Source: Candidatus Marinacidobacterales bacterium (GTDB lineage Bacteria; Acidobacteriota; Vicinamibacteria; Marinacidobacterales; SMYC01). From it: DNA of 64,000 nt. The translations under genes and the position numbers were made by a program. Shown here piece by piece: positions 8,027 through 63,836 of the stretch; position 1 is the stretch's first letter; every line of letters starts with the position of its first letter. The stretch spans positions 6,400,001 through 6,464,000 of the forward strand of contig OZ250169.1 of assembly GCA_965237955.1 (NCBI GenBank). The letters are read 5' to 3'. The notes under the pieces were generated by a model. The model did not search any database. It worked only from the letters and a program-made list of their open reading frames with translations, and had not been told where the DNA came from.

Positions 8027-9571
8027 CTACAACGCAGGCTTGCGTTCAATCTTGAAGGTGAAAGCATGCTCGCAAGGTTTTTTGTCCGGGGTTTTGATAG
8101 TAAGGCCGTCTTCAGTCATCGTCCATTCCAGTTCTTCATCAACACCAAGCATCTTTATGGATTCGATCTCTGATTCATGTAGTCTAAATGCTTCGCCAGG
8201 CAGTAATCCAACGCCAGCCAGGAACTTGATTGTAACCTCATCTCCTGGCCAATCGAGACTAATCGCATAGATGACGTTATCCTTAACAGTAAACCTGATA
8301 TCCTGACCTGTATGTGGGACTTTCTTCCTCTTCTGGGTAGTATCCGCAACCTTAGGAGCCCACTTCCAAACAAGATCCGACATAGCTGAAGGACCTTCTC
8401 CATGTCTTATCCAAGCCGTGGTACCGTAAATCGCTTCACCGTTTACCTTCAGCCATTCGCCCATACCCAGCAGACGTTTCCTAGCCTCTTCAGGGATCGT
8501 TCCATCAGGTTTGGGACCAACATTGAGCAAAAGGAACCCATTCATGCTGACTCTATCCACGAGATCATCCACCAACGTATTTACCGATCTGAATTTTGCA
8601 TCCTTAGTGTAAGACCATACGGGTGGGTCATCTACAGAGGGAGCCGACATCCACGTATGATATGTCAGCTGCTTTTTTCCCCCTGAGTTCTCGAGACCAA
8701 CGCCGGGCGGAAAATCATGAACTTTATACGATACTAAGACTTCCTTGCCACGTTCAACGGATTTGTTGTAGTAGTAGGCTAGAAAGTTCTTTTGATAAAC
8801 ATCTTTCCTTATTCCCTCCAGAGGAGAGTCAAACCATATAAAGTCGGGATCATATTTATCGATAACTTCTATTAGTTTTCCGTACCATTCATCTAAGAAC
8901 TCCTTGTTGGGCTCGTCTCCTTTCTCGTGAATCTGGCCGTATAACCCTGAATACTTCGGATCGGAACAGTCAAATCTCTCGTCCCATACCGGAAAGAAAG
9001 TCCAGTTCGTGGAATGGTGGAATGTAGTTACGAACTTCATGTTGCGTTTCTTGATGGCTTTTTCTAACTCCCCGACAACATCTCTTTTCGGCCCCATCTT
9101 CGCAGCATTCCATTCTGAGTACTTGGTATCCCACATTGCGAAGCCATCGTGGTGTTCTGCGACTGGACCAGCGAATTTTGCGCCAGCCTTTTCGAAAAGC
9201 TCTGCCCATTCGTCAGCATCGAACTTCTCCGCCTTAAACATAGGAATAAATTCCTTGTATCCGAATTCCGAGAGAGGACCGTATGTTGCTACGTGGTGTT
9301 TGTGCTGTTCGGAATCTTCACTCGAATAAATAAAATAGGGATACCAGGTGCCATCGGGACCCATGGCAGGTACCGAATAAACTCCCCAATGTGTATAAAT
9401 TCCAAACTTGCCATCTTGTACCCACTGCGGGACTGGATAGCGTTTTAGAGATCTCCAGGTAGGCTTGTAGGATTCCTCGGCCATAGAGCCATTCTTGCAG
9501 CTGGCAAGCGAACCAGCTGTCATTATCACTACCATCGATATCCCGGCCAATAGAATCGACTTTTTAAACAT
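8027..9571 (-). CDS. Alpha-L-fucosidase (GH29), predicted lipoprotein, lower GC than its neighbours
   Basis: KFGIYTHWGVYSVP, AEHHDGFAMW, IWFD, LLLNVGP, NGEAIYGT motifs; RBS aggagg. Confidence 0.93.
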   Translation of the reverse strand: MFKKSILLAGISMVVIMTAGSLASCKNGSMAEESYKPTWRSLKRYPVPQWVQDGKFGIYTHWGVYSVPAMGPDGTWYPYFIYSSEDSEQHKHHVATYGPLSEFGYKEFIPMFKAEKFDADEWAELFEKAGAKFAGPVAEHHDGFAMWDTKYSEWNAAKMGPKRDVVGELEKAIKKRNMKFVTTFHHSTNWTFFPVWDERFDCSDPKYSGLYGQIHEKGDEPNKEFLDEWYGKLIEVIDKYDPDFIWFDSPLEGIRKDVYQKNFLAYYYNKSVERGKEVLVSYKVHDFPPGVGLENSGGKKQLTYHTWMSAPSVDDPPVWSYTKDAKFRSVNTLVDDLVDRVSMNGFLLLNVGPKPDGTIPEEARKRLLGMGEWLKVNGEAIYGTTAWIRHGEGPSAMSDLVWKWAPKVADTTQKRKKVPHTGQDIRFTVKDNVIYAISLDWPGDEVTIKFLAGVGLLPGEAFRLHESEIESIKMLGVDEELEWTMTEDGLTIKTPDKKPCEHAFTFKIERKPAL

Positions 9572-21872: not shown

Positions 21873-23073
21873 GGTGCTTCCGCCATCAACTGTTACTCAG
21901 GCCGCCAGAAGCTCGTCCACGATCGGGGTGGTCGGCAGCCGGCTCGGCACGGCGTACGTGATCGCGCCGATGCTTACTAATAAAGATGGCGGCAGACACA
22001 CGAATACCTTGCGGAAAGTGAGTCGCCGGGTGGCGAGTTCGGCCTGCATCGCCGGAGTCCGGGTCTCACGCCCGAACTTCAGAGCGCCGTGCGGGCGGAC
22101 GAAGTTGTAATGACAACGCAGCAGCTCGAGATGTCTTCGAGCTTCTCCTCCGAGCGAGCATGGGAGAGCGTTCGCCGGGACAGATAGGCCGAGCCCTGTC
22201 GGATGGTCAGATTCATCCGTTCAATGAACGACGTGTTCAATGTCGACGAGTCCTCCGAGTTATTGAGCACTTCTTCGAACCGCCACGACGCTCCCATCAT
22301 CTCTCTTCGTTCGACCTTCACGATACGATCGTTTCTTCGCGTCTTGAGCACCTGGCCGTACAGAGCCGCTGGACCAAAGACGCGACGGACTCCGTGACGC
22401 TCTTCTCATAGAAATCGAATCCGTCGGTGACGATCAAGGGAAGACGCTCGAAATCCATCCGGTTCGCGACGTCGCGCAGTAGAGCGAGCGCGCTTCGTGT
22501 TTCGGTAGCTTCGTCTTCCAGTCACTGTCGATGGCCAGAGCCGCGACCAAACCTCGATCGCGACGAATATCCACGTTGGCCGCGTCTTGCCGCCGGCGAA
22601 GGAGCGAATCTCGTCCGCCTGCAGCTCCTCGACGCCGAATTCGGCAGTCCGTCTCTGGTTGAAGCCACGGCAAACGTCGGCGGCTTTCTCAAGCCATCGA
22701 GCGACGGTGTTCCAGGCAAGCCCTTCGATCCGAGCAATCGCGTAAATGCTGACACCTTCGACTCTGAGAGCGACCACTGCGTCGAAAGTCGCCCTTCGAT
22801 GGAGAGTGTGCCTTTCGTCGAAGAGAACGTCTTTTCGCACTCGACGCACCGGTAGCGACGGCGTTTCCCGGATCTCGTCCGGTAGAATCCGTGCCGAACA
22901 ACGTTCCCGGAGCCGACTTTTTCATGCGGACGACATTCGGGGTTGAGACAGCTCGGACTTTTCACTCGCGTGGGCCTTGTCGACGAAAGAACTACGTCCG
23001 TCGAAATCAGGCGCAAACTCTAGCACGCAGACTGTTTAGGGCCTGCCCACCAACACTTGATTGCGGAAGCACC
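21873..23073 (-). mobile_element. IS1-family element with degraded transposase
   Basis: IR ggtgcttccgc(c/a)atcaa; zinc-finger RYRCVEC, LQADEIRSF, NTSFIERMNLTIRQ. Confidence 0.85.
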
Positions 23074-23262
23074 GATCGTTCCGCGCCCGTGCTGTGTCTG
23101 AATCACAGCCAGCACGCTCCTCTGCGCGTGAATTCCGCTAGCCACGCGTCGGATTCAGCTCAGCTTTGACCAACGACTCATGCGAACCCCCCTCAAGTTG
23201 GAATTCTGCCTCCCCAGGCATGCCGACAGACCTTGATTTTTCCTATCCTTTTTCCTATCCTT
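23074..23262 (+). mobile_element. IS91-like ori tail with a tandemly duplicated terminus
   Basis: ttgatttttcctatcctt tttcctatcctt; resembles the ori ends at 4156 and 13320. Confidence 0.55.
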
Positions 23263-23329
23263 CAAAAAAGGAGATGACGCTAAAGGGAAAGAAAGAATAC
23301 AAAAAGAAGGAAGAACTAAAAAGGAGGAC

Positions 23330-25369
23330 ATGATGAAAAAAATCCATAATTTGAAACTTTTTGGATTGGTGGCCTTCCTGGCTTTTGCTTTGGTTTTTAT
23401 TGGTATAGACGTTATTGAAGGCCAAACCCAAGACCGCCCAGCACTGGAAGATTACAGGATCATGCCAATTTTTCCTGGGCAACCTGTATCGGATCCACAG
23501 ATATCCCCTGACGGTACCAAAGTTCTCTTCACTTACAGGACCGCGAACGTGAAAGAGGACAGATACCACAGCCACATATGGCTCCTCCCCTTGGATGAGA
23601 AAAAGCCGAAACAGTTTACATACGGCAACGGCAACGACAGCCATCCCAGATGGTCCCCAGATGGGAAGACCATCCTTTTCCTCTCCGATCGTTTGAGCGA
23701 GGAGAATAAACCAGGGATGCAGATATTCGTGATCCCTGCCGACGGCGGTGAGGCAAGATGTCTTACCTCTGTAGAGGAAGGCGTTGAGCGCCCCACCTGG
23801 TCCCCCGACGGCAAGACCATACTTTTTCTCTCAAACGTCTTCAAAGGTGAGAGAGCGAAGGGCAGCGACATCATGATCATCAGACGCATGCCTTACAGGA
23901 ATACTAGTGGTGAATATATATATGACAAGTGGACGCATCTCTTCTCAGTCCCGTCCAAAGGCGGTGAGGTAAAGCAGCTGACCGATGGAGAGTTCAACAT
24001 AAATATGGCCGTCTGGTCCCCCGATGGCAGCCGCGCAGTCTTTCTCTCTCGCGGGCGCATCTACACCATCTCCTCAAAAGGAGGAGATCCAGAGCTTCTG
24101 TGGAAGGCTAACGGATCTATAGGAGCTCTAGGATTGTCCCCGGATGGGAAGTACTTCGCTTTCGGTGCGAGTGAAAGGGTTAGAGCGGACCCTGCCCCCC
24201 CCTTCTTTAGAAATTCCGACATTTCCGTCTTACCAGTAGAAGGCGGTGAGCCTGAGAACCTCACGGCTGACTTCGATAGGGATGTCAGCCGGAGTCCGTT
24301 GATTTGGTCTCCTGACTCCAAATACATCTACTTTTGGACTGACGACCACGGGAGCAGACACCTGTACAGGGTTAGCTTGAACAGAGAGGTGGAGAGGGTG
24401 ACCGAGGGAAATATTACCGTAGGGGGCTTAAGCCTGGACAGAACTGGTTCTGTTCTCGTCTTCAACGCTTCGGATGCTATGACCCCGACGGAGCTCTGGA
24501 TAAAGGATGAAAAAGGCACGAGGCGCCTCACGGAGATGAACGAGGGGTTGCTGAGCAAGCTGAGGTTGAGCAAGCCCGAGGAGTTCTGGTTCACCGCCAG
24601 CGACGGCGTCAAAGTCCAGGGATGGATAGTCAAGCCCCATGAATTAAAAGAGAAGGAGAGGTACCCGACGATCTTCTTGCTACACGGTGGGCTATACAGG
24701 GGTTCATACGGATTCCGACCGATGCCGCGCGCGCAGGTATTAGCGGACCACGGCTTCGCTGTGGTGTACATGAACTTTAGGGGCAGTGGCGGGTACGGAG
24801 AAGCCTTCGCAGGCGAGGTCTTATTCTCGCCCTCTGCTGACGGCTCAGGCAACTGGGGTGATCGGGATTACCAGGACATCATGGAAACCGTAGACTATGT
24901 CATCAATACCTATCCCTTCATCGACCCTGAGAGGCTGGGCGTCACGGGCGGCTCATACGGAGGCTTCATGACGAGCTGGATTGTTGGGCAGACGGACCGG
25001 TTCAAGGCGGCCGTTAGCTCGGCAAGTAGGAACAACCACTACAGCAGCATGTTAACTTCTGCTAGTTATGGGACTCGCCCTGAGATCTCTGAGAGGAAGG
25101 CCCCGTGGGATAACCTGCAGCGGCTCATGGAGAAGTCCCCCATCACCTACGTCAAGAACGTGAAGACGCCGCTGTTAATCATCCACTCTGAACTGGACTT
25201 TGTTACTGCGATTGAACAGGCTGAACAGCTCTTCACAGCGCTGTGGAAGCTGAAAAAAGTTGTTGAGTTCATCAGAATCCCCAACGAGCCCCACGGCGTG
25301 AGAGGGCCTAAGCACATAGTGGAGAGGGAACAGCACACAGTCAGATGGTTTGACACATACCTAAGGTAA
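23330..25369 (+). CDS. S9-family (acylaminoacyl/dipeptidyl) peptidase with signal peptide
   Basis: WSPDG (PD40) repeats; catalytic triad GGSYGG, HSELD, NEPH. Confidence 0.93.
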   Translation: MMKKIHNLKLFGLVAFLAFALVFIGIDVIEGQTQDRPALEDYRIMPIFPGQPVSDPQISPDGTKVLFTYRTANVKEDRYHSHIWLLPLDEKKPKQFTYGNGNDSHPRWSPDGKTILFLSDRLSEENKPGMQIFVIPADGGEARCLTSVEEGVERPTWSPDGKTILFLSNVFKGERAKGSDIMIIRRMPYRNTSGEYIYDKWTHLFSVPSKGGEVKQLTDGEFNINMAVWSPDGSRAVFLSRGRIYTISSKGGDPELLWKANGSIGALGLSPDGKYFAFGASERVRADPAPPFFRNSDISVLPVEGGEPENLTADFDRDVSRSPLIWSPDSKYIYFWTDDHGSRHLYRVSLNREVERVTEGNITVGGLSLDRTGSVLVFNASDAMTPTELWIKDEKGTRRLTEMNEGLLSKLRLSKPEEFWFTASDGVKVQGWIVKPHELKEKERYPTIFLLHGGLYRGSYGFRPMPRAQVLADHGFAVVYMNFRGSGGYGEAFAGEVLFSPSADGSGNWGDRDYQDIMETVDYVINTYPFIDPERLGVTGGSYGGFMTSWIVGQTDRFKAAVSSASRNNHYSSMLTSASYGTRPEISERKAPWDNLQRLMEKSPITYVKNVKTPLLIIHSELDFVTAIEQAEQLFTALWKLKKVVEFIRIPNEPHGVRGPKHIVEREQHTVRWFDTYLR

Positions 25370-25445
25370 ACGTGAGATCTTTATATGAGAGATGAAATAA
25401 CTATTTGGGTTCCACATCAATTGTTCACACAACTATCATTAAATG

Positions 25446-25803
25446 GGTGCTTCCGCGATCAAGTGTTGGTGGGCAGGCCCTAAACAGTCTGCGTGCTAGA
25501 GTTTGCACCTGATTTCGACGGACGTAGTCCTTTCGTCGACAAGGCGCACGCGAGTGAAAAGTCTGATCTGTCTCAACCCCGAATGTCGTTCGCATGAAAA
25601 AGTCGGCTCCGGGAACGTCGTTCGGCACGCCCTACTACCGTCTCCAGCATCGAAGGGCTTTCCGCGAGGTATTCGTGTGTCTGCCGCCATCCTTATTAGT
25701 AAGCATCGGCGCGATCACGTACGCCGTGCCGAGCCGGCTGCCGACCACCCCGATCGTGGACGAGCTTCTGGCGGCCTGAGTAACAGTTGATGGCGGAAGC
25801 ACC
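25446..25803 (+). mobile_element. 358-bp internally deleted derivative (MITE) of the IS1-family element at 21873-23073
   Basis: Both ends match that IS; opposite orientation. Confidence 0.88.
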
Positions 25804-31878: not shown

Positions 31879-33190
<1,312 letters not shown>

Positions 33191-42806: not shown

Positions 42807-45700
42807 TGCGTATTCCAGCCATCGTGAACGCCGAATCCAGAGCAAGCTGAACAGCGAATCCGGTGAAGCCGAACGCTCATCGAAGCGATGAAGTGTTGGG
42901 TGACCTCCTTCCCACTGATTGAAAACGTGAACCTATCTTACCTGCGTGTTGTGTAGCAAGGGGCGGCAGGTCGGTGCCGGAGGGAGCGGGCGTAAGGAAA
43001 GACGCGAAGCGACCTTCCCGCTCCCGTAGGCAGCGACCTGCCGCGGCCGAACCCCGGGCGATGTGGGGCTGGTTTCGGGGGGTTGCTGGGGTATGGCCTG
43101 GCTCGAGAAGACGCTTCCTGAGGCATTCTCGCGCGTCGTTTTGGCGCCGCATCGTCTGGTACCCCGGGTTTGGCGGTTTCACCCGTTTTTATCGCATCGA
43201 CGCTGTGGTCCCTCGCTCGCTCATGCATCGGCGTTGTCAAATGCCTTTGGCGCAGCCTTGGTCTTTCTCAGAGAAGCTCCTTTGAGAGTGATGCGGTGCG
43301 CGCTGTGGAGAATGCGATCGCAGATAGCGTCTGCCTGGTTTGGGTCGCCAATCGCTTCGTGCCACTGCTTGAGCGGAATCTGGGTCGCGATGAGTGTGGA
43401 GCCACGCTCGGCGCGGTCTTCGATGACCTCCATTAGATCCCGTCTCTCCGATTCTTTCAGCGGGTGAAGCAGCTTGGCGAGTTTCGTCAAAAGCCGGACT
43501 TACTGGCTATCGATGATTGGCGTAGGAACCATCACCACGAGCGACCGCGAGCTCGTGGAGCAAGCGCGGTGCTCGCACGTAGCATCCGGTGAAGCCGCGA
43601 CGACAGGCCCGCTCCACGAAGGCGCAAGCCAAGAACGATTTGCCAATCCCCGTCGGGCCGGTGATGAGCAGGTTATGGCGCTCACCGACAAAGCGGCAGT
43701 TGCCCAGGCTCAAGATCTGTTCGCGGTTTAAGCCTCGAGGCGCTTGGAAGTTCACGTTCTCCAAACATGCCGGATAGCGGAGCTTTGCCGCTCGCAGTCG
43801 TCGAGAAAGCTTACGCTGTTCGCGGGCGGTCCACTCGGCATCGACCAGGAGTCCCACACGTTCCTCGAAGCTCAGCTCCTTGTATTCGCTCGAGCTCAAC
43901 TGGGTTTCGAACGCGGACACCAAGCCGAACAACTTCATGGCGTTCATCTTTTCTATCGTTTCGGGTGTCAGCATCGGGACTCTCCTCCTTCGTAGTGATC
44001 CGCGCCTCGGATGTTCTCGTGCTCCTCTCGCGGTTTCGCTTCGGCGTCCGATTCGAGCACCACACGATCCAGACCAGCCGAGAGAATGTTTTTCACCGTG
44101 CGATAGCTGTAAGAGCTCAAAGCTTCCGCTCGTGCGCAAGCGGCCTCGAGACGCTCACTGCCCCAGCGGCTGCCTAGTCGCATGACTCCCAGGCAAGAGC
44201 GAAATCCCTGCTCCGGGTGAGGCCGACTCTCTAGAATCCCCGCAACCAGCCTTCCCGTGGCGCGACCTGACTGCTCCGCCCAGTGGAGCAGCCGCGACGG
44301 CGTCCACTCCAGGTGCTCCCGATGCGAACGTGGCATATGCTCCGGGTTCGTGGAGTAGTGCCCCTTTCCTTTCTTGCGGGGATGCGACGCGACGCGCTTT
44401 CCCTTGAACAGGACCTCCACCACCGAGGCCGTCACCCGTGCCTCGACTTTCTCGTGAATGAGCTGATAGGGAACGCTGTACAAGTTGTTCTCCACCTCCA
44501 CGTGGTAGTCGATGTTCACTCTGCACCGCTTCCACGTCGATAACTCGTAGCTCTCCTGCGGTAGCGGTTTCAGTACGGGCCGGTCTAGCCTTTCGTACAA
44601 CTCCCGCCGACTCACACCGAGCTTCTGCATCGGACGCGCATTCAGGACCTCTAACTTCTCCCAGATGGCTTCGTTCAGTTCCGCCAGGCTGAAGAACGTG
44701 CGATGACGAAGCACCGCCAGGATCCAGCGCTGCGCCACCTGCACTGCCGACTCCACCTTCGCTTTGTCTTTCGGCTTGAACACCCGAGCCGGGACCACAA
44801 CCGCACCGTAATGCGTCGCCAGCTCTTCGTACGTCCGGTTGATCCCTGGCTCGTAACGGTCCACCAAATCCACGCCGCTCTTCAAGTTGTCCGGAACCCA
44901 GATCTCCGTACTGCCACCGAAGTAATCCGACATCCCCTTATGGGCCTTCGCCCACGATTCCAGCGACTGGTTCAGTGTCGCTTCGACGTAGGTGTAACTG
45001 CTCGCGCCCAACGTCCCGACGAACAGCTCCATTTCGACGAGCTCTCCCGTTTTCGGATCGACGATGTGAGGCTTCTTCCCCGAAAAATCGACGAATGTCT
45101 TCTCGCCTGCTCGATGCCGTTGACGCATCGTCGGGTTCAGCTTCTTCTTCCACTGACCGTACAGCTCGCAATAACGGCTGTAGCCGTACGCTCCCGGCTT
45201 ATTCTCCGCGTACTCCACCCACAGCTGCAGCAACGTCAGCTCTCGGTGACGCCTCAGCTCCTCGTGGATGTGGGCATAGTCCAGACCCGGCCGTGCGCCA
45301 GACGAGCCCGGCGGCGGAAACAGCCCTGCCTCCAGCTCCCCGTCGCTCAGCTCCTCCGGGAGCGGCCAGCTCAGACCACCCTTCTTCGCCTTGGCCAGGT
45401 ACTCACTCACCGTTCCAACCGCCACGCGAAGTGCCTTTGCGATCATGCGGTGAGTAAAACCCAGCTCGTACTTTAACCTTAGAACCTCTCGTATTTTTCT
45501 CATCGATAACCTCTTAGCTGCCATTTCCTAGATCGTCCTCCTTCCGGGTACGACCTAGAGTTGCCTTGAAACGTGCTATCGATGAGCGTTCGCGATGCCG
45601 GAACCGGCGTTCACCTTCCCCGGAATCCGTGTTCACGATGCTTTGGAATGGATGTTCACCTTCGGCTGGAATCTGCGTTCACGATGCCCCGGAATACGCA
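42807..45700 (-). mobile_element. istA: IS21-family element, copy 1: istA 43968-45524 intact, istB 43221-43974 scrambled
   Basis: TG...CA ends; flanks gctcca/actcca; PDNLKS, DKAKVE; Walker A GPTGIGKS. Confidence 0.95.
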
Positions 45701-51100: not shown

Positions 51101-54043
51101 TGCGTATTCCGGGGCATCGTGAACGCAGATTCCAGCCGAAGGTGAACATCCATTCCAAAGCATCGTGAACACGGATTCCGGGGATCGTGAACATCGATTC
51201 CGGGGAAGGTGAACACGGATTCCAGGCAACGTGAACGCCGGTTCCGGCATCGCGAACGCTCATCGATAGCACGTTTCAAGGCAACTCTAGGTCGTACCCG
51301 GAAGGAGGACGATCTAGGAAATGGCAGCTAAGAGGTTATCGATGAGAAAAATACGAGAGGTTCTAAGGTTAAAGTACGAGCTGGGTTTTACTCACCGCAT
51401 GATCGCAAAGGCACTTCGCGTGGCGGTTGGAACGGTGAGTGAGTACCTGGCCAAGGCGAAGAAGGGTGGTCTGAGCTGGCCGCTCCCGGAGGAGCTGAGC
51501 GACGGGGAGCTGGAGGCAGGGCTGTTTCCGCCGCCGGGCTCGTCTGGCGCACGGCCGGGTCTGGACTATGCCCACATCCACGAGGAGCTGAGGCGTCACC
51601 GAGAGCTGACGTTGCTGCAGCTGTGGGTGGAGTACGCGGAGAATAAGCCGGGAGCGTACGGCTACAGCCGTTATTGCGAGCTGTACGGTCAGTGGAAGAA
51701 GAAGCTGAACCCGACGATGCGTCAACGGCATCGAGCAGGCGAGAAGACATTCGTCGATTTTTCGGGGAAGAAGCCTCACATCGTCGATCCGAAAACGGGA
51801 GAGCTCGTCGAAATGGAGCTGTTCGTCGGGACGTTGGGCGCGAGCAGTTACACCTACGTCGAAGCGACACTGAACCAGTCGCTGGAATCGTGGGCGAAGG
51901 CCCATAAGGGGATGTCGGATTACTTCGGTGGCAGTACGGAGATCTGGGTTCCGGACAACTTGAAGAGCGGCGTGGATTTGGTGGACCGTTACGAGCCAGG
52001 GATCAACCGGACGTACGAAGAGCTGGCGACGCATTACGGTGCGGTTGTGGTCCCGGCTCGGGTGTTCAAGCCGAAAGACAAAGCGAAGGTGGAGTCGGCA
52101 GTGCAGGTGGCGCAGCGCTGGATCCTGGCGGTGCTTCGTCATCGCACGTTCTTCAGCCTGGCGGAACTGAACGAAGCCATCTGGGAGAAGTTAGAGGTCC
52201 TGAATGCGCGTCCGATGCAGAAGCTCGGTGTGAGTCGGCGGGAGTTGTACGAAAGGCTAGACCGGCCCGTACTGAAACCGCTACCGCAGGAGAGCTACGA
52301 GTTATCGACGTGGAAGCGGTGCAGAGTGAACATCGACTACCACGTGGAGGTGGAGAACAACTTGTACAGCGTTCCCTATCAGCTCATTCACGAGAAAGTC
52401 GAGGCACGGGTGACGGCCTCGGTGGTGGAGGTCCTGTTCAAGGGAAAGCGCGTCGCGTCGCATCCCCGCAAGAAAGGAAAGGGGCACTACTCCACGAACC
52501 CGGAGCATATGCCACGTTCGCATCGGGAGCACCTGGAGTGGACGCCGTCGCGGCTGCTCCACTGGGCGGAGCAGTCAGGTCGCGCCACGGGAAGGCTGGT
52601 TGCGGGGATTCTAGAGAGTCGGCCTCACCCGGAGCAGGGATTTCGCTCTTGCCTGGGAGTCATGCGACTAGGCAGCCGCTGGGGCAGTGAGCGTCTCGAG
52701 GCCGCTTGCGCACGAGCGGAAGCTTTGAGCTCTTACAGCTATCGCACGGTGAAAAACATTCTCTCGGCTGGTCTGGATCGTGTGGTGCTCGAATCGGACG
52801 CCGAAGCGAAACCGCGAGAGGAGCACGAGAACATCCGAGGCGCGGATCACTACGAAGGAGGAGAGTCCCGATGCTGACACCCGAAACGATAGAAAAGATG
52901 AACGCCATGAAGTTGTTCGGCTTGGTGTCCGCGTTCGAAACCCAGTTGAGCTCGAGCGAATACAAGGAGCTGAGCTTCGAGGAACGTGTGGGACTCCTGG
53001 TCGATGCCGAGTGGACCGCCCGCGAACAGCGTAAGCTTTCTCGACGACTGCGAGCGGCAAAGCTCCGCTATCCGGCATGTTTGGAGAACGTGAACTTCCA
53101 AGCGCCTCGAGGCTTAAACCGCGAACAGATCTTGAGCCTGGGCAACTGCCGCTTTGTCGGTGAGCGCCATAACCTGCTCATCACCGGCCCGACGGGGATT
53201 GGCAAATCGTTCTTGGCTTGCGCCTTCGTGGAGCGGGCCTGTCGTCGCGGCTTCACCGGATGCTACGTGCGAGCACCGCGCTTGCTCCACGAGCTCGCGG
53301 TCGCTCGTGGTGATGGTTCCTACGCCCGGCTTTTGACGAAACTCGCCAAGCTGGACTTACTGGCTATCGATGATTGGCTGCTTCACCCGCTGAAAGAATC
53401 GGAGAGACGGGATCTAATGGAGGTCATCGAAGACCGCGCCGAGCGTGGCTCCACACTCATCGCGACCCAGATTCCGCTCAAGCAGTGGCACGAAGCGATT
53501 GGCGACCCAAACCAGGCAGACGCTATCTGCGATCGCATTCTCCACAGCGCGCACCGCATCACTCTCAAAGGAGCTTCTCTGAGAAAGACCAAGGCTGCGC
53601 CAAAGGCATTTGACAACGCCGATGCATGAGCGAGCGAGGGACCACAGCGTCGATGCGATAAAAACGGGTGAAACCGCCAAACCCGGGGTACCAGACGATG
53701 CGGCGCCAAAACGACGCGCGAGAATGCCTCAGGAAGCGTCTTCTCGAGCCAGGCCATACCCCAGCAACCCCCCGAAACCAGCCCCACATCGCCCGGGGTT
53801 CGGCCGCGGCAGGTCGCTGCCTACGGGAGCGGGAAGGTCGCTTCGCGTCTTTCCTTACGCCCGCTCCCTCCGGCACCGACCTGCCGCCCCTTGCTACACA
53901 ACACGCAGGTAAGATAGGTTCACGTTTTCAATCAGTGGGAAGGAGGTCACCCAACACTTCATCGCTTCGATGAGCGTTCGGCTTCACCGGATTCGCTGTT
54001 CAGCTTGCTCTGGATTCGGCGTTCACGATGGCTGGAATACGCA
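51101..54043 (+). mobile_element. istB: IS21-family element, copy 2, intact: istA 51321-52877, istB 52871-53629
   Basis: IstA identical to copy 1; LLAIDDW Walker B; flanks ctcggt/gtcggt. Confidence 0.96.
51119..51250 (+). repeat. IS21 left-end array of six 22-bp transposase-binding repeats
   Basis: gtgaac(a/g)...att cc units at a 22-bp period. Confidence 0.85.
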
Positions 54044-57403: not shown

Positions 57404-57436
57404 CCTGTAGGGGTTCGAATCCCCCCTTCGGCACCA
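57404..57436 (+). tRNA. 3' fragment of tRNA-Leu (att site), not a complete tRNA
   Basis: ggggTTCGAATcccc + cttcggc + ACCA; no gccgaag 5' strand upstream. Confidence 0.7.
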
Positions 57437-57599
57437 ACAACACCTAAGTCCTTTCAGTTATCGGACTTAGCTTTCTCTCCAATCACCGTCTCCAGCATGT
57501 CTCCAAAACCAGAGACCTTTTTTCCAACAATGATAGTTGTGTGAACAGTGATGTGGAACCTAAATAGTTACTTCATCTCTGAGATAAAGATCTTCACGT

Positions 57600-59621
57600 T
57601 TACCTTACGTATCTGTCAAACCATCTGAGCATGTGTTGGAGCCTCTCCACCCTGTGTTTGGGCCTCCCAATTCTGGAGAGGTCATGGTTCTCATTAGGGA
57701 ATCTGACGAACTCGACGACCTTCTTCTGCCTCTTCAGTGTTACGAAGAGCTTTTCAGCCTTCGCAACTGGGCTAATAAAATCCAGGTCTGCATGGATGTG
57801 CAAGAGCGGCGTATTCATGTTCTCGACCTCCGGGAGACCTTCCCAAACTCCCCTCAACGAGATAGCTGCCTTGAACCGGTCCGAATGCCCGATGACCCAG
57901 TTCGTCATGAAGCCGCCAAAGGAACCTCCAGTAACGCCCATCCTCTCGACATCGGCGAAAGGATAATTCTCTGCGACAAAGTCTACCGACTCGATGATGT
58001 CCTGGAAATCTCGTTCACCATGGCGACCTGAGGTATTAGAGAAGGCGGCACCGTACCCAGTGCTCCCACGGGGGTTCGTGTAGAAGACCACGTAACCATG
58101 GTCAGCAAGCACTTGGAACTCGTGCTCTGTTGCCGCAAACATGAATCCATAGGAAGTAAAACCTGGCCCCCCATGTATCTCGAGTATCGTCCGGTACTTC
58201 TTGCCTTCCTCGAAGCCCCGGGGCTTGATGATCCATCCTTGGACTTTGGCGCCATCGCTGGCGGTGAACCAGAACTCCTCCGGTTTGTTCACCCTCAGCG
58301 TGCTCAGCAACTCCTTGTGCAAATACGTGAGGCGCCTCGTGCCCTTCTCGTCCTTTATCCAAAGCTCAAAGGGTGTCACAAGGTCGGAGGAGGTGAAGAC
58401 CATCTTGGAACCAGTCCTGTCTAGGCTGAAGCCGAAACGACCAACGTTCGCCTTCTCCGCGGTCATATGCTCGACCTCTCCGTCCAAGCTGACCCTCAAG
58501 ATGCGTTTGGCGCCAAGATCGTCGATCTTGAAGTAGACATGCTTGGAGTCAGGAGACCAAATTCGTTCATATAGCTGGCGGTGCCAGGCCTCCGACCTAT
58601 CAAGGTTGGCCGTAAGGTTCTTGGGCTCCCCACCCTCAACCGGAAGGACCCAGACATCCCTATTTCTATGAGAAGGTAGTCTAGGCTTTTCTATCGCGCG
58701 TCCAGAGAATGCGAGGTATTTACCATCGGGAGACCAACCCAAGGCCATAGGTCCGCTCACTCTGGCATTCTCCCATAGGAGGTCTGGATCTCCTCCTTTT
58801 GAGGGAACGGTATAGAGGTGATTGAGTCCGGAGAGGTCCGCAGGATCCTCTAGGTTGGAGATGAAGCCCACGCGATCGCCGTCGGGGGACCAGACGGGTG
58901 AGTCCACATCGAATTCTCCATCCGTCAGTTGCCTTATCTCCCCCCCACTCGAGGGGACGGAAAAGATGTGCCTCCTTCTTCCCCGTACGTAGCCACCAGT
59001 ATAGATCTTGTAATTGATGCGCCGGATGATATCGACATCGCTCCCATCTGCACTCTCGTTCTGGGGTACTGGGGAAGAGAAGAGAATGGTCTTTCCATCA
59101 GGGGACCAGGATGGTTGCTGGACGCCTTCCTCCAGAGCAGTAATACTCCTTGCCTCGCCCCCGTCAGCTGGCATCACAAAGATCTGATACGAACCTTCCG
59201 AAACAGTGCCGGCTCCGACTGTATTCGTCTTTCCATCCAATCGACTGGAGAGAAACAGAATGGACTTGCCATCTGGGGACCACCTTGGATGGATGTCGTC
59301 ACCTTGGCCATAAGTGAACTGCTTCGGTGTTCCCTCATCCAGGGCGATTGACCAGATATGGGTGTCATATCTGTCTTCCGCCATATTTGTGGTCGCGTAG
59401 GTGAAGAGCACCCGGGTTCCATCGGGAGATATCTGCGGATCGGACACAGGATATCGATGGAAAATAGGCATAATCTCGAAATCTTCCAATTTTTTCCGTT
59501 CCAACCCATCGCTTGTTGTTCTTACTTGGCCTTCAATAAAGTCAGAACCAATAAAAACCAAAGCAAAAGCCAGGAAGGCCACCAATCCGGAAAGTTTCAA
59601 ATTGTGGATTCTTTTCATCAT
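57600..59621 (-). CDS. S9-family peptidase, paralog of 23330-25369
   Basis: WSPDG repeats; HGGP, GGSFGG, HADLD, NENH. Confidence 0.92.
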   Translation of the reverse strand: MMKRIHNLKLSGLVAFLAFALVFIGSDFIEGQVRTTSDGLERKKLEDFEIMPIFHRYPVSDPQISPDGTRVLFTYATTNMAEDRYDTHIWSIALDEGTPKQFTYGQGDDIHPRWSPDGKSILFLSSRLDGKTNTVGAGTVSEGSYQIFVMPADGGEARSITALEEGVQQPSWSPDGKTILFSSPVPQNESADGSDVDIIRRINYKIYTGGYVRGRRRHIFSVPSSGGEIRQLTDGEFDVDSPVWSPDGDRVGFISNLEDPADLSGLNHLYTVPSKGGDPDLLWENARVSGPMALGWSPDGKYLAFSGRAIEKPRLPSHRNRDVWVLPVEGGEPKNLTANLDRSEAWHRQLYERIWSPDSKHVYFKIDDLGAKRILRVSLDGEVEHMTAEKANVGRFGFSLDRTGSKMVFTSSDLVTPFELWIKDEKGTRRLTYLHKELLSTLRVNKPEEFWFTASDGAKVQGWIIKPRGFEEGKKYRTILEIHGGPGFTSYGFMFAATEHEFQVLADHGYVVFYTNPRGSTGYGAAFSNTSGRHGERDFQDIIESVDFVAENYPFADVERMGVTGGSFGGFMTNWVIGHSDRFKAAISLRGVWEGLPEVENMNTPLLHIHADLDFISPVAKAEKLFVTLKRQKKVVEFVRFPNENHDLSRIGRPKHRVERLQHMLRWFDRYVR

Positions 59622-59715
59622 GTCGTCCTTTTTTAGTTCTTCCTTCTTCTTGTATTCTCCAATATTTCCCATATCACGTTACAAAAGAGAATATTGGGCA
59701 TCATCTTGATTTAAT

Positions 59716-59870
59716 AAGGATAGGAGATTTTCCAAGCCTGCCCCGGTCGTTGCACTCCGCATTTCTCCAGCTTGAACGAGGTGACGTCGCCTCATGCGGT
59801 AGCGGTGACATTAGCAAAGGGTCGGGAGCAAGACAAGGCGGTGAGGGCGGAGGGTTTTCCTGGGGAAGAC
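59716..59870 (-). mobile_element. IS91-like ori tail remnant
   Basis: ttggaaaatctcctatcctt on the minus strand. Confidence 0.5.
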
Positions 59871-60225
59871 ACAGGTATGGCGTGTGTTGGCGAAGAAACG
59901 GCACAGAATTGAAGGGTGAGAAGTCGTTTTTTCCGGTAAGCCCGGGCTCTCGAAGAATAGGTGTCGAAAAAACTTGATGTTTTGTACAAGATCCATACAA
60001 TTTTCTTGCGTGGTTTGGAGTGTATCTACCAACGAAAAGTGAGAAGTCAAGTGTGACTGTCTCTTGCTCCAGAATATTTGCCCAAACGACACGAGGAAAA
60101 GCGCGTGTTAAGGAAATTGATGGTCCCGGAAATCGGGAGCCTCTTATGAATAGTAAGTATGGTATATCGTGTAAAAACAGCATCACTCTAAAATCTGGTC
60201 AAGATATGAAAAAAAGGCAGAGAAA

Positions 60226-61647
60226 ATGAAAAAACTTTTGTTCATGCTGGCGATTTGTTCATTGGCGCTCATTCCGTCAACGTTTCTTGCATTTCCAACC
60301 GTTTTCCCGACGGGAACGACGATCTACAAACCTGATAAAGCCTGGAACGGCTACAACATCTTTCCCGCCAAAGGAATTGGACCTGTCCTAATTGATATGA
60401 ACGGCAATGTGGTCAAGCAGTGGGTAGACCCCTCATATGCCAGTATGTCCAAGCTTCTTCCGGGTGGATATGTAATGCGCCCTATAGGCGGAAGAGCAAG
60501 AGTAAAAGACCATCCAGATGCTAACGATCTGGTGCAACTTGACTGGGATGGAAACATTGTATGGAAGTTCGAAAAAGCCGGTCAACATCATGATTACCAG
60601 CGAGAGGGTAATCCGGTGGGGTACTACGTTCCCGGTATGGACCCCTTGGTCGATAAGGGAAAGACCCTGATCCTTTCCAAAAAGCTTCTGAAGAATCCCA
60701 AAATAACCGACAAGCTTCTATATGAGGACTACATCTTTGAGGTGACCTGGGACGGAAAGATCGTCTGGGAATGGTTATGGCATGAGCATTTTGATGAACT
60801 CGGGTTCAACGAGGCAGCCAAGAATACCATTTACCGTAATCCGAATTACGAGCCTATAAGTATAGAAGGAGTAGAGGCTGCCAGCTGGTTGCATATCAAC
60901 AGTTTGTCGTATGTTGGACCCAATAGGTGGTACGACGCGGGTGACGAGCGCTTCCATCCTGACAACGTGATCTGGGATGCCCGCCAGGCTAACATCCTGG
61001 GAATAACCGACAGGAAGACCGGTGAGATTGTCTGGAAGGTGGGACCGGACTATACCGCTACACCGGCACTCCGCAAGTTGGATCAGATCGTGGGCCCGCA
61101 TCATTGCCATATGATCCCCAAGGGACTTCCTGGCGCAGGGAACATCCTGGTCTTTGACAATGGTGGAAGAGCTGGATACGGTCCCCCTAATCCTGGTAGT
61201 GCCACCGGGAGCGGAAATGCTCGGCGGGATTATTCCCGAGTATTAGAGTTCAATCCGGTGACGCTGGAGTTGGTTTGGGAATATACAGCCGACAAGGTTG
61301 GTTATAGGCGTGAGAAGTTTTTCAGCTTCAATGTAAGCTCAGCCCAGCGTCTTCCCAACGGGAACACCTTAATCACGGAAGGTGCTCAGGGGCGCTTTTT
61401 CGAGGTGACCTCCGAATTAGAGATCGTCTGGGAATACGTTAACCCATTTTTCCACGGAGTCTTGTGTCGCACCTGCGGGAATCCCTATGACTGGATTGAA
61501 ACAACGGGCGAGACAGAGGAGCGTAGGAATACTGCTTATCGCGCTTACCGGGTTCCCTATGACTGGGTTCCACAACTAGAAAGGCCTGTGGAAAAAGCTG
61601 TGATCCCTCCTCCCAATTCAAAGTTCAGAATCGAACCTCAACAATAG
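60226..61647 (+). CDS. Arylsulfotransferase (ASST) family secreted protein
   Basis: PTVFPTGTTIY, QHHD, WLHINS, LVFDNGG, SAQRLPNGNTLITEG. Confidence 0.88.
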   Translation: MKKLLFMLAICSLALIPSTFLAFPTVFPTGTTIYKPDKAWNGYNIFPAKGIGPVLIDMNGNVVKQWVDPSYASMSKLLPGGYVMRPIGGRARVKDHPDANDLVQLDWDGNIVWKFEKAGQHHDYQREGNPVGYYVPGMDPLVDKGKTLILSKKLLKNPKITDKLLYEDYIFEVTWDGKIVWEWLWHEHFDELGFNEAAKNTIYRNPNYEPISIEGVEAASWLHINSLSYVGPNRWYDAGDERFHPDNVIWDARQANILGITDRKTGEIVWKVGPDYTATPALRKLDQIVGPHHCHMIPKGLPGAGNILVFDNGGRAGYGPPNPGSATGSGNARRDYSRVLEFNPVTLELVWEYTADKVGYRREKFFSFNVSSAQRLPNGNTLITEGAQGRFFEVTSELEIVWEYVNPFFHGVLCRTCGNPYDWIETTGETEERRNTAYRAYRVPYDWVPQLERPVEKAVIPPPNSKFRIEPQQ

Positions 61648-61738: not shown

Positions 61739-63052
<1,314 letters not shown>

Positions 63053-63111: not shown

Positions 63112-63836
63112 GTAGAGTAAGCGGGGGAAGCTAAGCTTCGCCCCACCTCTCGTCGCACCGGACGTGCAGATGTCCCGCATCCGGCGCTCCCAACAGCCTT
63201 GTGTCGTAAGCATGCACAAAGAGCCTCGCGACTCGCCAGTCACAGGTAGACTAACCCACGATCGGCGAGATGACGGTAGAACGTCACCCCTGCCGGAGGG
63301 CGGTAGCGTCGCTGGCTCCGTCGTCGTAGATGGACGACAAGACGGTTACGGACGTACCAGTTCAGCCGTCGAAAGTATCGGCGAGGGTGGCCATAGTCGA
63401 AGTAGTTCGCCCAGCCTTTGAGGTGCCGGTTCAGCTGCTGGATCAGCGCTGGAATAGGCTTAAAGCACTGCCCACTGGCCGTCATCTCTATCAGCTTGGC
63501 GCGTTCACGTGCCATAGCTTTCTTCGAGGGCCCAACGTGTAAGTACCGATGAGCCCGACCGTGCAGGTCGGCTTGGTACTGCAACGTGAACCCCAGAAAG
63601 TCCAGGCTCTCCCCCTTCGCCAAGTTCACCACTCGAGTCTTCTCCCGATTGATGCTCAGGCCCATCCGCCCTTCGAGGAATCCCTCCACGAACCGCCGGA
63701 GCTTCGGCCCTTGATAGCGGGCTAGGATAACGAGTCGAGTCACGCGGCGGAGTCCCTGAGTCACAAATCAATGCCTTAGAGGCTGCCGGGTTGGCATCCC
63801 CCTTGCTGTATGTCCGGCTGGAAGCGGAGGTCGGGG
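63112..63836 (-). mobile_element. Group II intron (class C), 3' part: maturase tail plus domains V and VI, interrupted by IS21
   Basis: LDFLG, GWANYF; domain V gagcgccggatgcgg...cacgtccggtgc with CGC triad; ends ttactctac. Confidence 0.88.

Follow-up and report, generated by a model that had tools for sequence, protein, structure and literature searches.

Chimeric S9 peptidase genes with a shared low-GC leader, repeatedly joined to IS91-family ori ends in a Marinacidobacterales genome

The stretch of Candidatus Marinacidobacterales DNA analysed here (the window; 64,000 nucleotides of the 8.13-Mb chromosome of genome G000) contains two intact S9 peptidase genes, copy 1 (type A; 23330-25369, forward strand) and copy 2 (type B; 57600-59621, reverse strand), whose products both match Peptidase_S9 and PD40 in a Pfam scan and are 54% identical in amino acid sequence. 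Both have the features of S9C peptidases, an N-terminal propeller and a Peptidase_S9 domain with Ser-Asp-His motifs, and they are predicted to be periplasmic or extracellular peptide trimmers of differing specificity; as for substrate class, the best NCBIfam equivalogs for the S9 proteins lie far below cut-off.

Upstream of copy 1 is an IS91-family 3′ (oriIS) end of subfamily a (23087-23262, +), which terminates in a 12-nt tandem repeat, has lost its transposase gene, and is 86-91% identical to ends found at other genomic loci, 229-292 nt behind PF04986 remnants. Comparison with paralogs delimits an AT-rich 5′ UTR with a ribosome-binding site that is shared with them (23263-23329, +). The grafted leader that follows (23330-23443, +), recognized by its matches to a leader family and by its GC content (0.34, versus 0.54 in the body), comprises a predicted signal peptide (residues 1-31, delimited by eye) and a linker ending in QDRPA; its junction with the body is that of paralog D, and the linker is that of an HExxH protein, E. 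The type A body (23444-25369, +) resembles S9C acylaminoacyl/dipeptidyl-peptidases, has the catalytic motifs of Ser542, Asp623, and His655, and carries a first propeller block converted from paralog C. An AT-rich 3′ trailer, probably donor flank (25370-25444, +), is 90-96% identical among four paralogs and has no stable fold, the predicted foldings being weak and inconsistent. To the left lies an ISL3-like insertion sequence (21873-23073, -) with inverted repeats, many genomic copies, and a weak, below-cut-off match to HTH_Tnp_ISL3; an internally deleted, inverted copy of the same element (25445-25803, +) cuts the trailer, and copy 1 is thus flanked on both sides by inverted ISL3-like ends.

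Copy 2 is preceded by an IS91-family 3′ end of a different subfamily, b (59716-59971, -; identified by sequence comparison), with a short C-terminal transposase remnant (about 59843-59971). Its 5′ UTR (59622-59715, -) is a long variant homologous to the UTR of a low-GC contig (L024); in both (window 59650-59700; contig 2290-2350) inspection by eye reveals an inverted repeat of 9 bp, its arms about 22 nt apart, possibly an operator or hairpin. Comparison of junctions indicates that the grafted leader (59499-59621, -) is joined so as to keep an archaeal-type start region, as in paralog C. The type B body (57600-59498, -) has the catalytic motifs. A segment of about 30 residues that follows the nucleophile strand in A, C, and leaderless homologs is absent from it and from type D (G000:C1:7307588), so that specificity or oligomer state may differ. 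The trailer (57529-57599, -) is shared with that of copy 1. Beyond it is an att-like remnant private to copy 2 (57405-57523, +), in which genome comparison recognizes a 3′ part of tRNA-Leu(GAG) and, after it, an arm resembling those that follow other tRNAs of the genome.

The window is dense in insertion sequences. Identical inverted IS21-type copies occupy 43519-45636 and 51209-53326, and two IS3-type ALIL frameshift pseudoknots and a group II intron 3′ domain were seen at 32207-32320, 62066-62182, and 63112-63189. A low-GC arylsulfotransferase gene with a signal-like N-terminus (60226-61647, +) diverges from copy 2 across the IS91 remnant.

A preliminary description of this DNA had reported conserved flanks and leaders around diverged bodies, and our measurements bear this out. 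The leader arms (23318-23425 and 59526-59633) are 92% identical across 108 nt of UTR and signal region, and the trailers agree in 62 of 69 alignment columns, giving 90-92% for leader and trailer compared with 66% nucleotide identity for the body. Where the encoded residue is unchanged, the codon is the same at 25 of 26 positions in the signal region and at 52% of 334 in the body. The ordinary duplication that the description had set against its own reading does not fit, since identity is not uniform and the leader also heads unrelated proteins. In its fullest form, one acquired gene would have duplicated and its bodies diverged rapidly; this agrees with the position of all leader-bearing S9 proteins within one supported clade of 15 rows in the careful tree, three of them leaderless. 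Conservation of synonymous sites and non-coding flanks at the ends is, however, much higher than that of the body, and a control family shows the opposite pattern: four foreign fucosidases are 61-67% identical at the N-terminus and mostly 76-97% in the body, with no shared flanks, so duplication does not normally produce the S9 pattern in this genome. We regard duplication alone as very improbable. The control genes are dispersed low-GC alpha-L-fucosidase paralogs (window 8027-9571, -; G000:C1 5464926, 5609797, and 8056548), the last of which has an IS91 ori end (subfamily e) 75 nt ahead of it.

When leader and trailer were searched against G000 by BLAST, four intact S9 genes were found, A (copy 1), B (copy 2), C, and D, with bodies 55-71% identical in amino acid sequence. 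The leader also heads E, a 459-aa HExxH protein with an unrelated body, no trailer, and no Pfam family above cut-off. The genome therefore holds at least five intact leader genes, not the two first described, and the leader heads other S9 variants (C and D) as well as an unrelated protein. One broken A-like copy also carries the leader (G000:C1:3218224-3220556; L050); an IS21-like element splits the leader, and another insertion sequence cuts the body after about 60 codons. Two orphan trailer remnants (G000:C1:5354467, -, and 7794690, +; L047 and L048) are reversed and directly upstream of foreign-looking genes, named by eye as a GH32-like lipoprotein and an S10-like carboxypeptidase; they may be what is left of S9 copies since deleted, now serving as promoter regions. 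A fifth archaeal-type S9 gene (G000:C1:3014813-3016855, +), about 41% identical to A and B, has a different signal peptide, which suggests a second, independent gain of export, its nearest match (P0120) being leaderless.

Leader DNA was detected in two of 60 relatives and in two of 54 other genomes of the order, the carriers (G009 and G013) both belonging to one other genus. (Genes are labelled below by type and genome, e.g., A0 in G000, A9 in G009, and A13 in G013.) Both carry A, B, C, and E, and G013 also D, with S9 proteins 92-97% and S9 genes 94-98% identical to those of G000 and with flanks unlike those in G000. The corresponding figure for recA is 79% at the nucleotide level, which indicates that the gene set was recently shared between the genera or taken from one donor. 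Under a near-identical leader, the three genomes hold only five body types, the same ones each time (D was not found in G009), and 20-25 near-identical sequences per type form the clusters on record; this is recent transfer of a fixed enzyme set, not of variable cassettes. A search of 185,579 genomes with a leader pattern returned 12 loci, eight of them real and four due to chance, and a metagenome collection yielded one. Short pieces of type B occur among the contigs of an RNA-library run (X20), although contigs cannot show transcription.

The S9 bodies are likely to be archaeal in origin. Of 120 database matches one was dropped as short, leaving 119 over 600 aa, and in 110 of these the leader is absent and the protein begins where the body begins; all nine taxon-named matches among the 120 are from Bathyarchaeia. 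Bodies have a GC content of 0.54-0.56 (GC3 0.63-0.70), compared with 0.33-0.41 in the leaders, and AGR codons make up 0.55-0.68 of their arginine codons versus 0.11 in host ORFs. Type C retains a Met at the leader-body junction, the old start position. Export of the S9 enzymes is predicted from the leader.

In body-only trees the leaderless protein P0023 groups with B inside B+D, and P0010 groups with A+C. Monophyly of the 12 leader-bearing rows among 26 was rejected (AU p=3.8e-55, LG+G4), and a FastTree analysis of 131 rows likewise does not unite the leader-bearing bodies in one clade. No taxon name is attached to P0010, P0013, or P0023, the leaderless proteins nested among them. Leader presence requires three changes on the body tree, which one gain and two losses would fit equally well, and recombination distorts such trees. 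Independent of any tree, the junction types (A and D versus B and C) cut across the body clades (A+C versus B+D), and recombination is therefore required. Within a 381-nt propeller block, A0 differs from C0 at four sites and from its own ortholog at 15, implying recent gene conversion between A and C.

The leader itself defines a family of signal peptides without annotation, heading about eight unrelated bodies. A 62-residue query revealed a third body (P0198), and a library of 1.84 billion sequences gave 21 matches, 19 with leader-type N-termini; two repetitive proteins were left out. The bodies of 21 leader proteins fall into nine BLAST components (E<1e-3), one of them a 41-aa fragment, though some might be united by remote homology. 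In the scanned proteins the leader is not covered by any Pfam or NCBIfam model, and the ESM Atlas gave no usable match for P0261. With P0260 as a single query, no leader was found in 400 other genomes of the phylum (E<=1e-6); a profile of the leader alignment detected it in one of these 400. Within the order of that genome, which belongs to another class of the phylum, 16 of 201 genomes proved to have it, including 15 of 69 in one family (f83). Genome size and GC content suggest that this order belongs to Aminicenantia. Leader genes of the order have a GC content of 0.35-0.47 and encode small secreted-type hypothetical and FG-GAP proteins; in the f83 genomes (L077-L094) the leader heads secreted-type proteins of 260-350 aa and of FG-GAP type, as many as three in a genome. 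The leader is thus likely native to low-GC genomes of this other class and was borrowed by the S9 genes. A close S9 body was not found in 96 f83 genomes (best identity 39%), nor was a donor genome found with both leader and close S9 body.

A donor-like state is seen in contig L024 (SDBT01142456.1; GC 0.37). Its E gene matches copy 1 at all but one of the first 69 nt, and the UTR there is longer and lacks an IS end. Protein E may be the source of the leader or another recipient; the signal of its relative P0127 is similar but diverged. Leader differences per 69 nt average 5.4 between paralogs of the same genome, 4.9 between orthologs, and 5.7 in cross comparisons, and are star-like around one sequence, from which it follows that the leader spread once, at about the time the orthologs split.

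At its widest, the preliminary description envisaged a mobile secretion frame carrying variable bodies. One part of this survives, as the comparisons support the leader as a portable, predicted secretion module; a single mobile frame does not, because the same body types recur across two genera and the trailer is absent from E and nearly gone in G009 and G013. An active cassette system, in which a fixed frame of ori end, leader, and trailer swaps bodies by way of circles, would account for young ends on old middles, for unrelated bodies under one leader, and for an association with ori ends far above chance. Against it, only the five shared body types are seen, none of the six S9 copies in G009 and G013 keeps more than about 10 nt of the trailer, and the star-like leader differences argue against ongoing homogenization. 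No linked recombinase was found (the 45 window ORFs scanned include no integrase), and no trailer-to-leader circle junction occurs among the joints listed (15 of 25 and two of two, in contigs only); the joint at 23251-23321 is the junction of paralog C. Such a system is not supported, and we consider it highly improbable.

The predicted folds of the trailer are weak, differ in five copies, and have no Rfam match, and no plasmid match was found. Among 301 genomes of the class it was seen, beyond its own genome, only in G013 (25 nt) and in an unrelated flank in G017. An identification as an IS1380-type end was rejected, as the genome's one full PF13701 element has no matching terminal repeat. 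The tRNA-Leu site of the preliminary description is real as a 3′ piece: of its 33 positions (57405-57437, +), 31 are those of the tRNA-Leu(GAG) encoded in this genome. There is no whole tRNA in the window. Lying about 90 nt past the trailer of copy 2, with no counterpart behind the other three S9 trailers, it falls outside the shared frame.

Alternatively, leader and trailer could both derive from one repeated spacer of a head-to-tail S9 array in the donor, homogenized by unequal crossing-over before the genes left singly. The two ends are about equally young, as this would require, and a 10-nt word is common to the UTR and the extended trailer (p=0.049, resampling). However, there are no tandem S9 pairs in the three genomes, where close pairs are divergent, and the leader of the HExxH gene is not accompanied by a trailer; an array origin seems improbable.

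The elements upstream can be assigned to the IS91 family because their ends occur behind the 3′ ends of Y2 HUH transposase genes. The end at copy 1 (at 23250/23262, 67-79 nt before the ATG) recurs 229-292 nt behind C-terminal Y2_Tnp (PF04986) remnants at two other loci, and the subfamily at copy 2 (ending at 59716, 94 nt before the ATG) recurs 213 nt behind one such remnant; the claim that each gene starts within 100 bp of an IS91-type end thus holds. The genome has 14 PF04986 matches. For each of subfamilies a, b, d, and e, a transposase tail lies 204-292 nt ahead of one of the copies; g, which is 80% like d, has no direct transposase link. At the window loci there is no complete IS91 element (terIS with intact tnpA), only remnants of 170-260 nt, and no common 4-mer follows the listed ends, by eye, as a fixed target tetranucleotide beside oriIS. 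Several ori ends carry tandem duplications of the terminus (6-13 nt; window 23239-23262; G000:C1 1543589, 4013175, 4530082, 3231280, and 3248314).

IS91 3′ sequence lies directly upstream of, and always facing, nine of the 14 intact leader genes (A0, B0, C0, E0, D13, B13, B9, where it is truncated, E13, and A9, where a transposase tail is fused to the UTR), representing about seven independent junctions. Five ori subfamilies with little in common beyond the terminus are involved, at offsets of about 13 to 109 nt before the ATG; as subfamilies and offsets differ and L024 has no such end, the ori end is not the fixed part of a frame it was first taken to be. In G000 an ori end precedes four of five leader genes and two of 24 other foreign-type genes (Fisher p=0.003; one of the two is truncated), and in G013 two of only four ori motifs precede leader genes. 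The 8.1 Mb of G000 contain 48 IS91 end candidates; for 45 of them (three being doubtful), a rough gene caller showed no significant genome-wide bias to gene starts, with 15 head and 10 tail placements against a null of 874:761.

The same chimeras could have arisen with no role for IS91 in transfer, IS ends having been inserted later in the UTR and kept as promoters. The same spot in the UTR is taken by IS110 ends in A13 and D0 and by an ISL3-like end in C9 and C13, and E9 has none; as four to five of the 14 copies have such ends or nothing, any IS end may do. Furthermore, IS91 5′ (ter-side) sequence is absent within 3 kb downstream of all 14 genes and of an orphan trailer, and ISCR1 ori regions have proven outward promoters, according to the available part of PMC6218425. 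Yet IS91 ends are few (the 48 candidates of G000, the four motifs of G013) and other insertion sequences far commoner, and still nine of 14 positions are IS91. The IS110 end at D0 (family assigned by eye) sits inside an 8-nt ori-like remnant, suggesting that an ori end was there earlier, and no sigma-70 consensus promoter was found on the gene strand in either window ori region or near the L024 UTR. Later insertion alone is, in our judgement, rather unlikely.

The reading we prefer, and whose chances we rate as about evenly balanced, is that chimeric genes composed of a low-GC acidobacterial leader and an archaeal S9 body were joined separately to IS91 ori ends in ISCR1-like capture and expression. 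The UTR, ribosome-binding site, signal peptide, and linker of a native secreted protein of the donor would have been fused in frame to an archaeal-type S9 ORF; the chimeric structure is evident in the genes, and a low-GC donor is the probable place of this first event. Recombination among paralogs swapped leaders and body blocks, giving two junction types across two body clades and young ends on old middles. The genes, shared across genera, would then have entered Marinacidobacterales-type chromosomes singly by a route we can only suggest: an IS91 transposase may have joined its own ori end to incoming donor DNA within the AT-rich UTR, the insertion sequence providing an outward promoter as well as homology through which to integrate. 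At the far end, trimming would have stopped at differing places within the trailer, with decay of the transposase coming later. A broader proposal, that IS91 ori ends are general capture anchors for foreign DNA in these acidobacteria and, with the leader, a retrofit route, free of any dedicated recombinase, by which cytoplasmic archaeal enzymes have repeatedly become expressed and exported in bacteria, is tentative and to us somewhat doubtful.

What the genomes display is leader grafting combined with an ISCR1-like ori association, in the form of chimerism, paralog recombination, cross-genus sharing, and repeated ori junctions. Near-identical DNA here catches two steps that are usually erased, the gain of export by an acquired cytoplasmic enzyme and its gain of a chromosomal place and expression. 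A signal-peptide family that had no annotation is defined, and the ISCR1-like association on the ori side is extended from resistance genes to catabolic genes of uncultured marine-type acidobacteria, raising the claim that IS91 transposases join foreign DNA to their ori ends. Taken singly, all the ingredients are known, and this is therefore not a new class of system; no description of the leader or of its combination with IS91 was found in the openly accessible literature searched.

Conserved leader families such as the YSIRK and KxYKxGKxW types occur on varied proteins. The present leader is likewise one recognizable signal-peptide family on unrelated bodies, but none of the Pfam and NCBIfam models scanned represents it, and it spreads here at DNA near-identity that includes the UTR. 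In contrast to integron-like cassettes, no structured end site was found for the genes, and no integrase among the 45 window ORFs scanned. The enzymes share the propeller, the alpha/beta hydrolase fold, and the Ser-Asp-His motifs of S9C peptidases (PDB 8wt1, 5yzm, and 4hxe; Bathyarchaeia S9), whereas their close S9C relatives are leaderless, and types B and D lack the 30 or so residues noted above. Gain of signal peptides by insertion of a whole leader is described for 34 events in Enterobacterales, with no transposable elements near such N-termini as far as the available part of that report goes (PMC5952966); acquisition of a whole leader is common to both, but unlike the cases given there, one leader is reused here on unrelated, cross-domain bodies with IS91 ends adjoining.

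Remnants of Y2 HUH transposases with ori ends downstream of tnpA are shared with IS91, IS801, and IS1294. In the one-ended transposition of these elements, as set out in the accessible portion of bioRxiv 10.1101/2025.01.24.634351, cargo lies beyond a missed terIS and a fixed tetranucleotide target lies next to ori; in contrast, the genes here are on the ori side, and no consensus follows ori by eye. For ISCR1, the available part of PMC6218425 reports a gene behind oriIS in 84% of 1127 sequences and ori-borne promoters that raise expression 13-15 fold, and a circle-plus-recombination model is cited in PMC7707992, so far as that text was available. Unlike ISCR1, five ori subfamilies converge here on one UTR, the transposases are gone, the cargo is catabolic, there is no integron 3′-CS, neither a duplicated segment nor another IS91 copy follows within 3 kb of the gene, and no promoter consensus was found; as in ISCR1, foreign genes lie directly behind an IS91-family ori end, pointing away from it, at variable distance.
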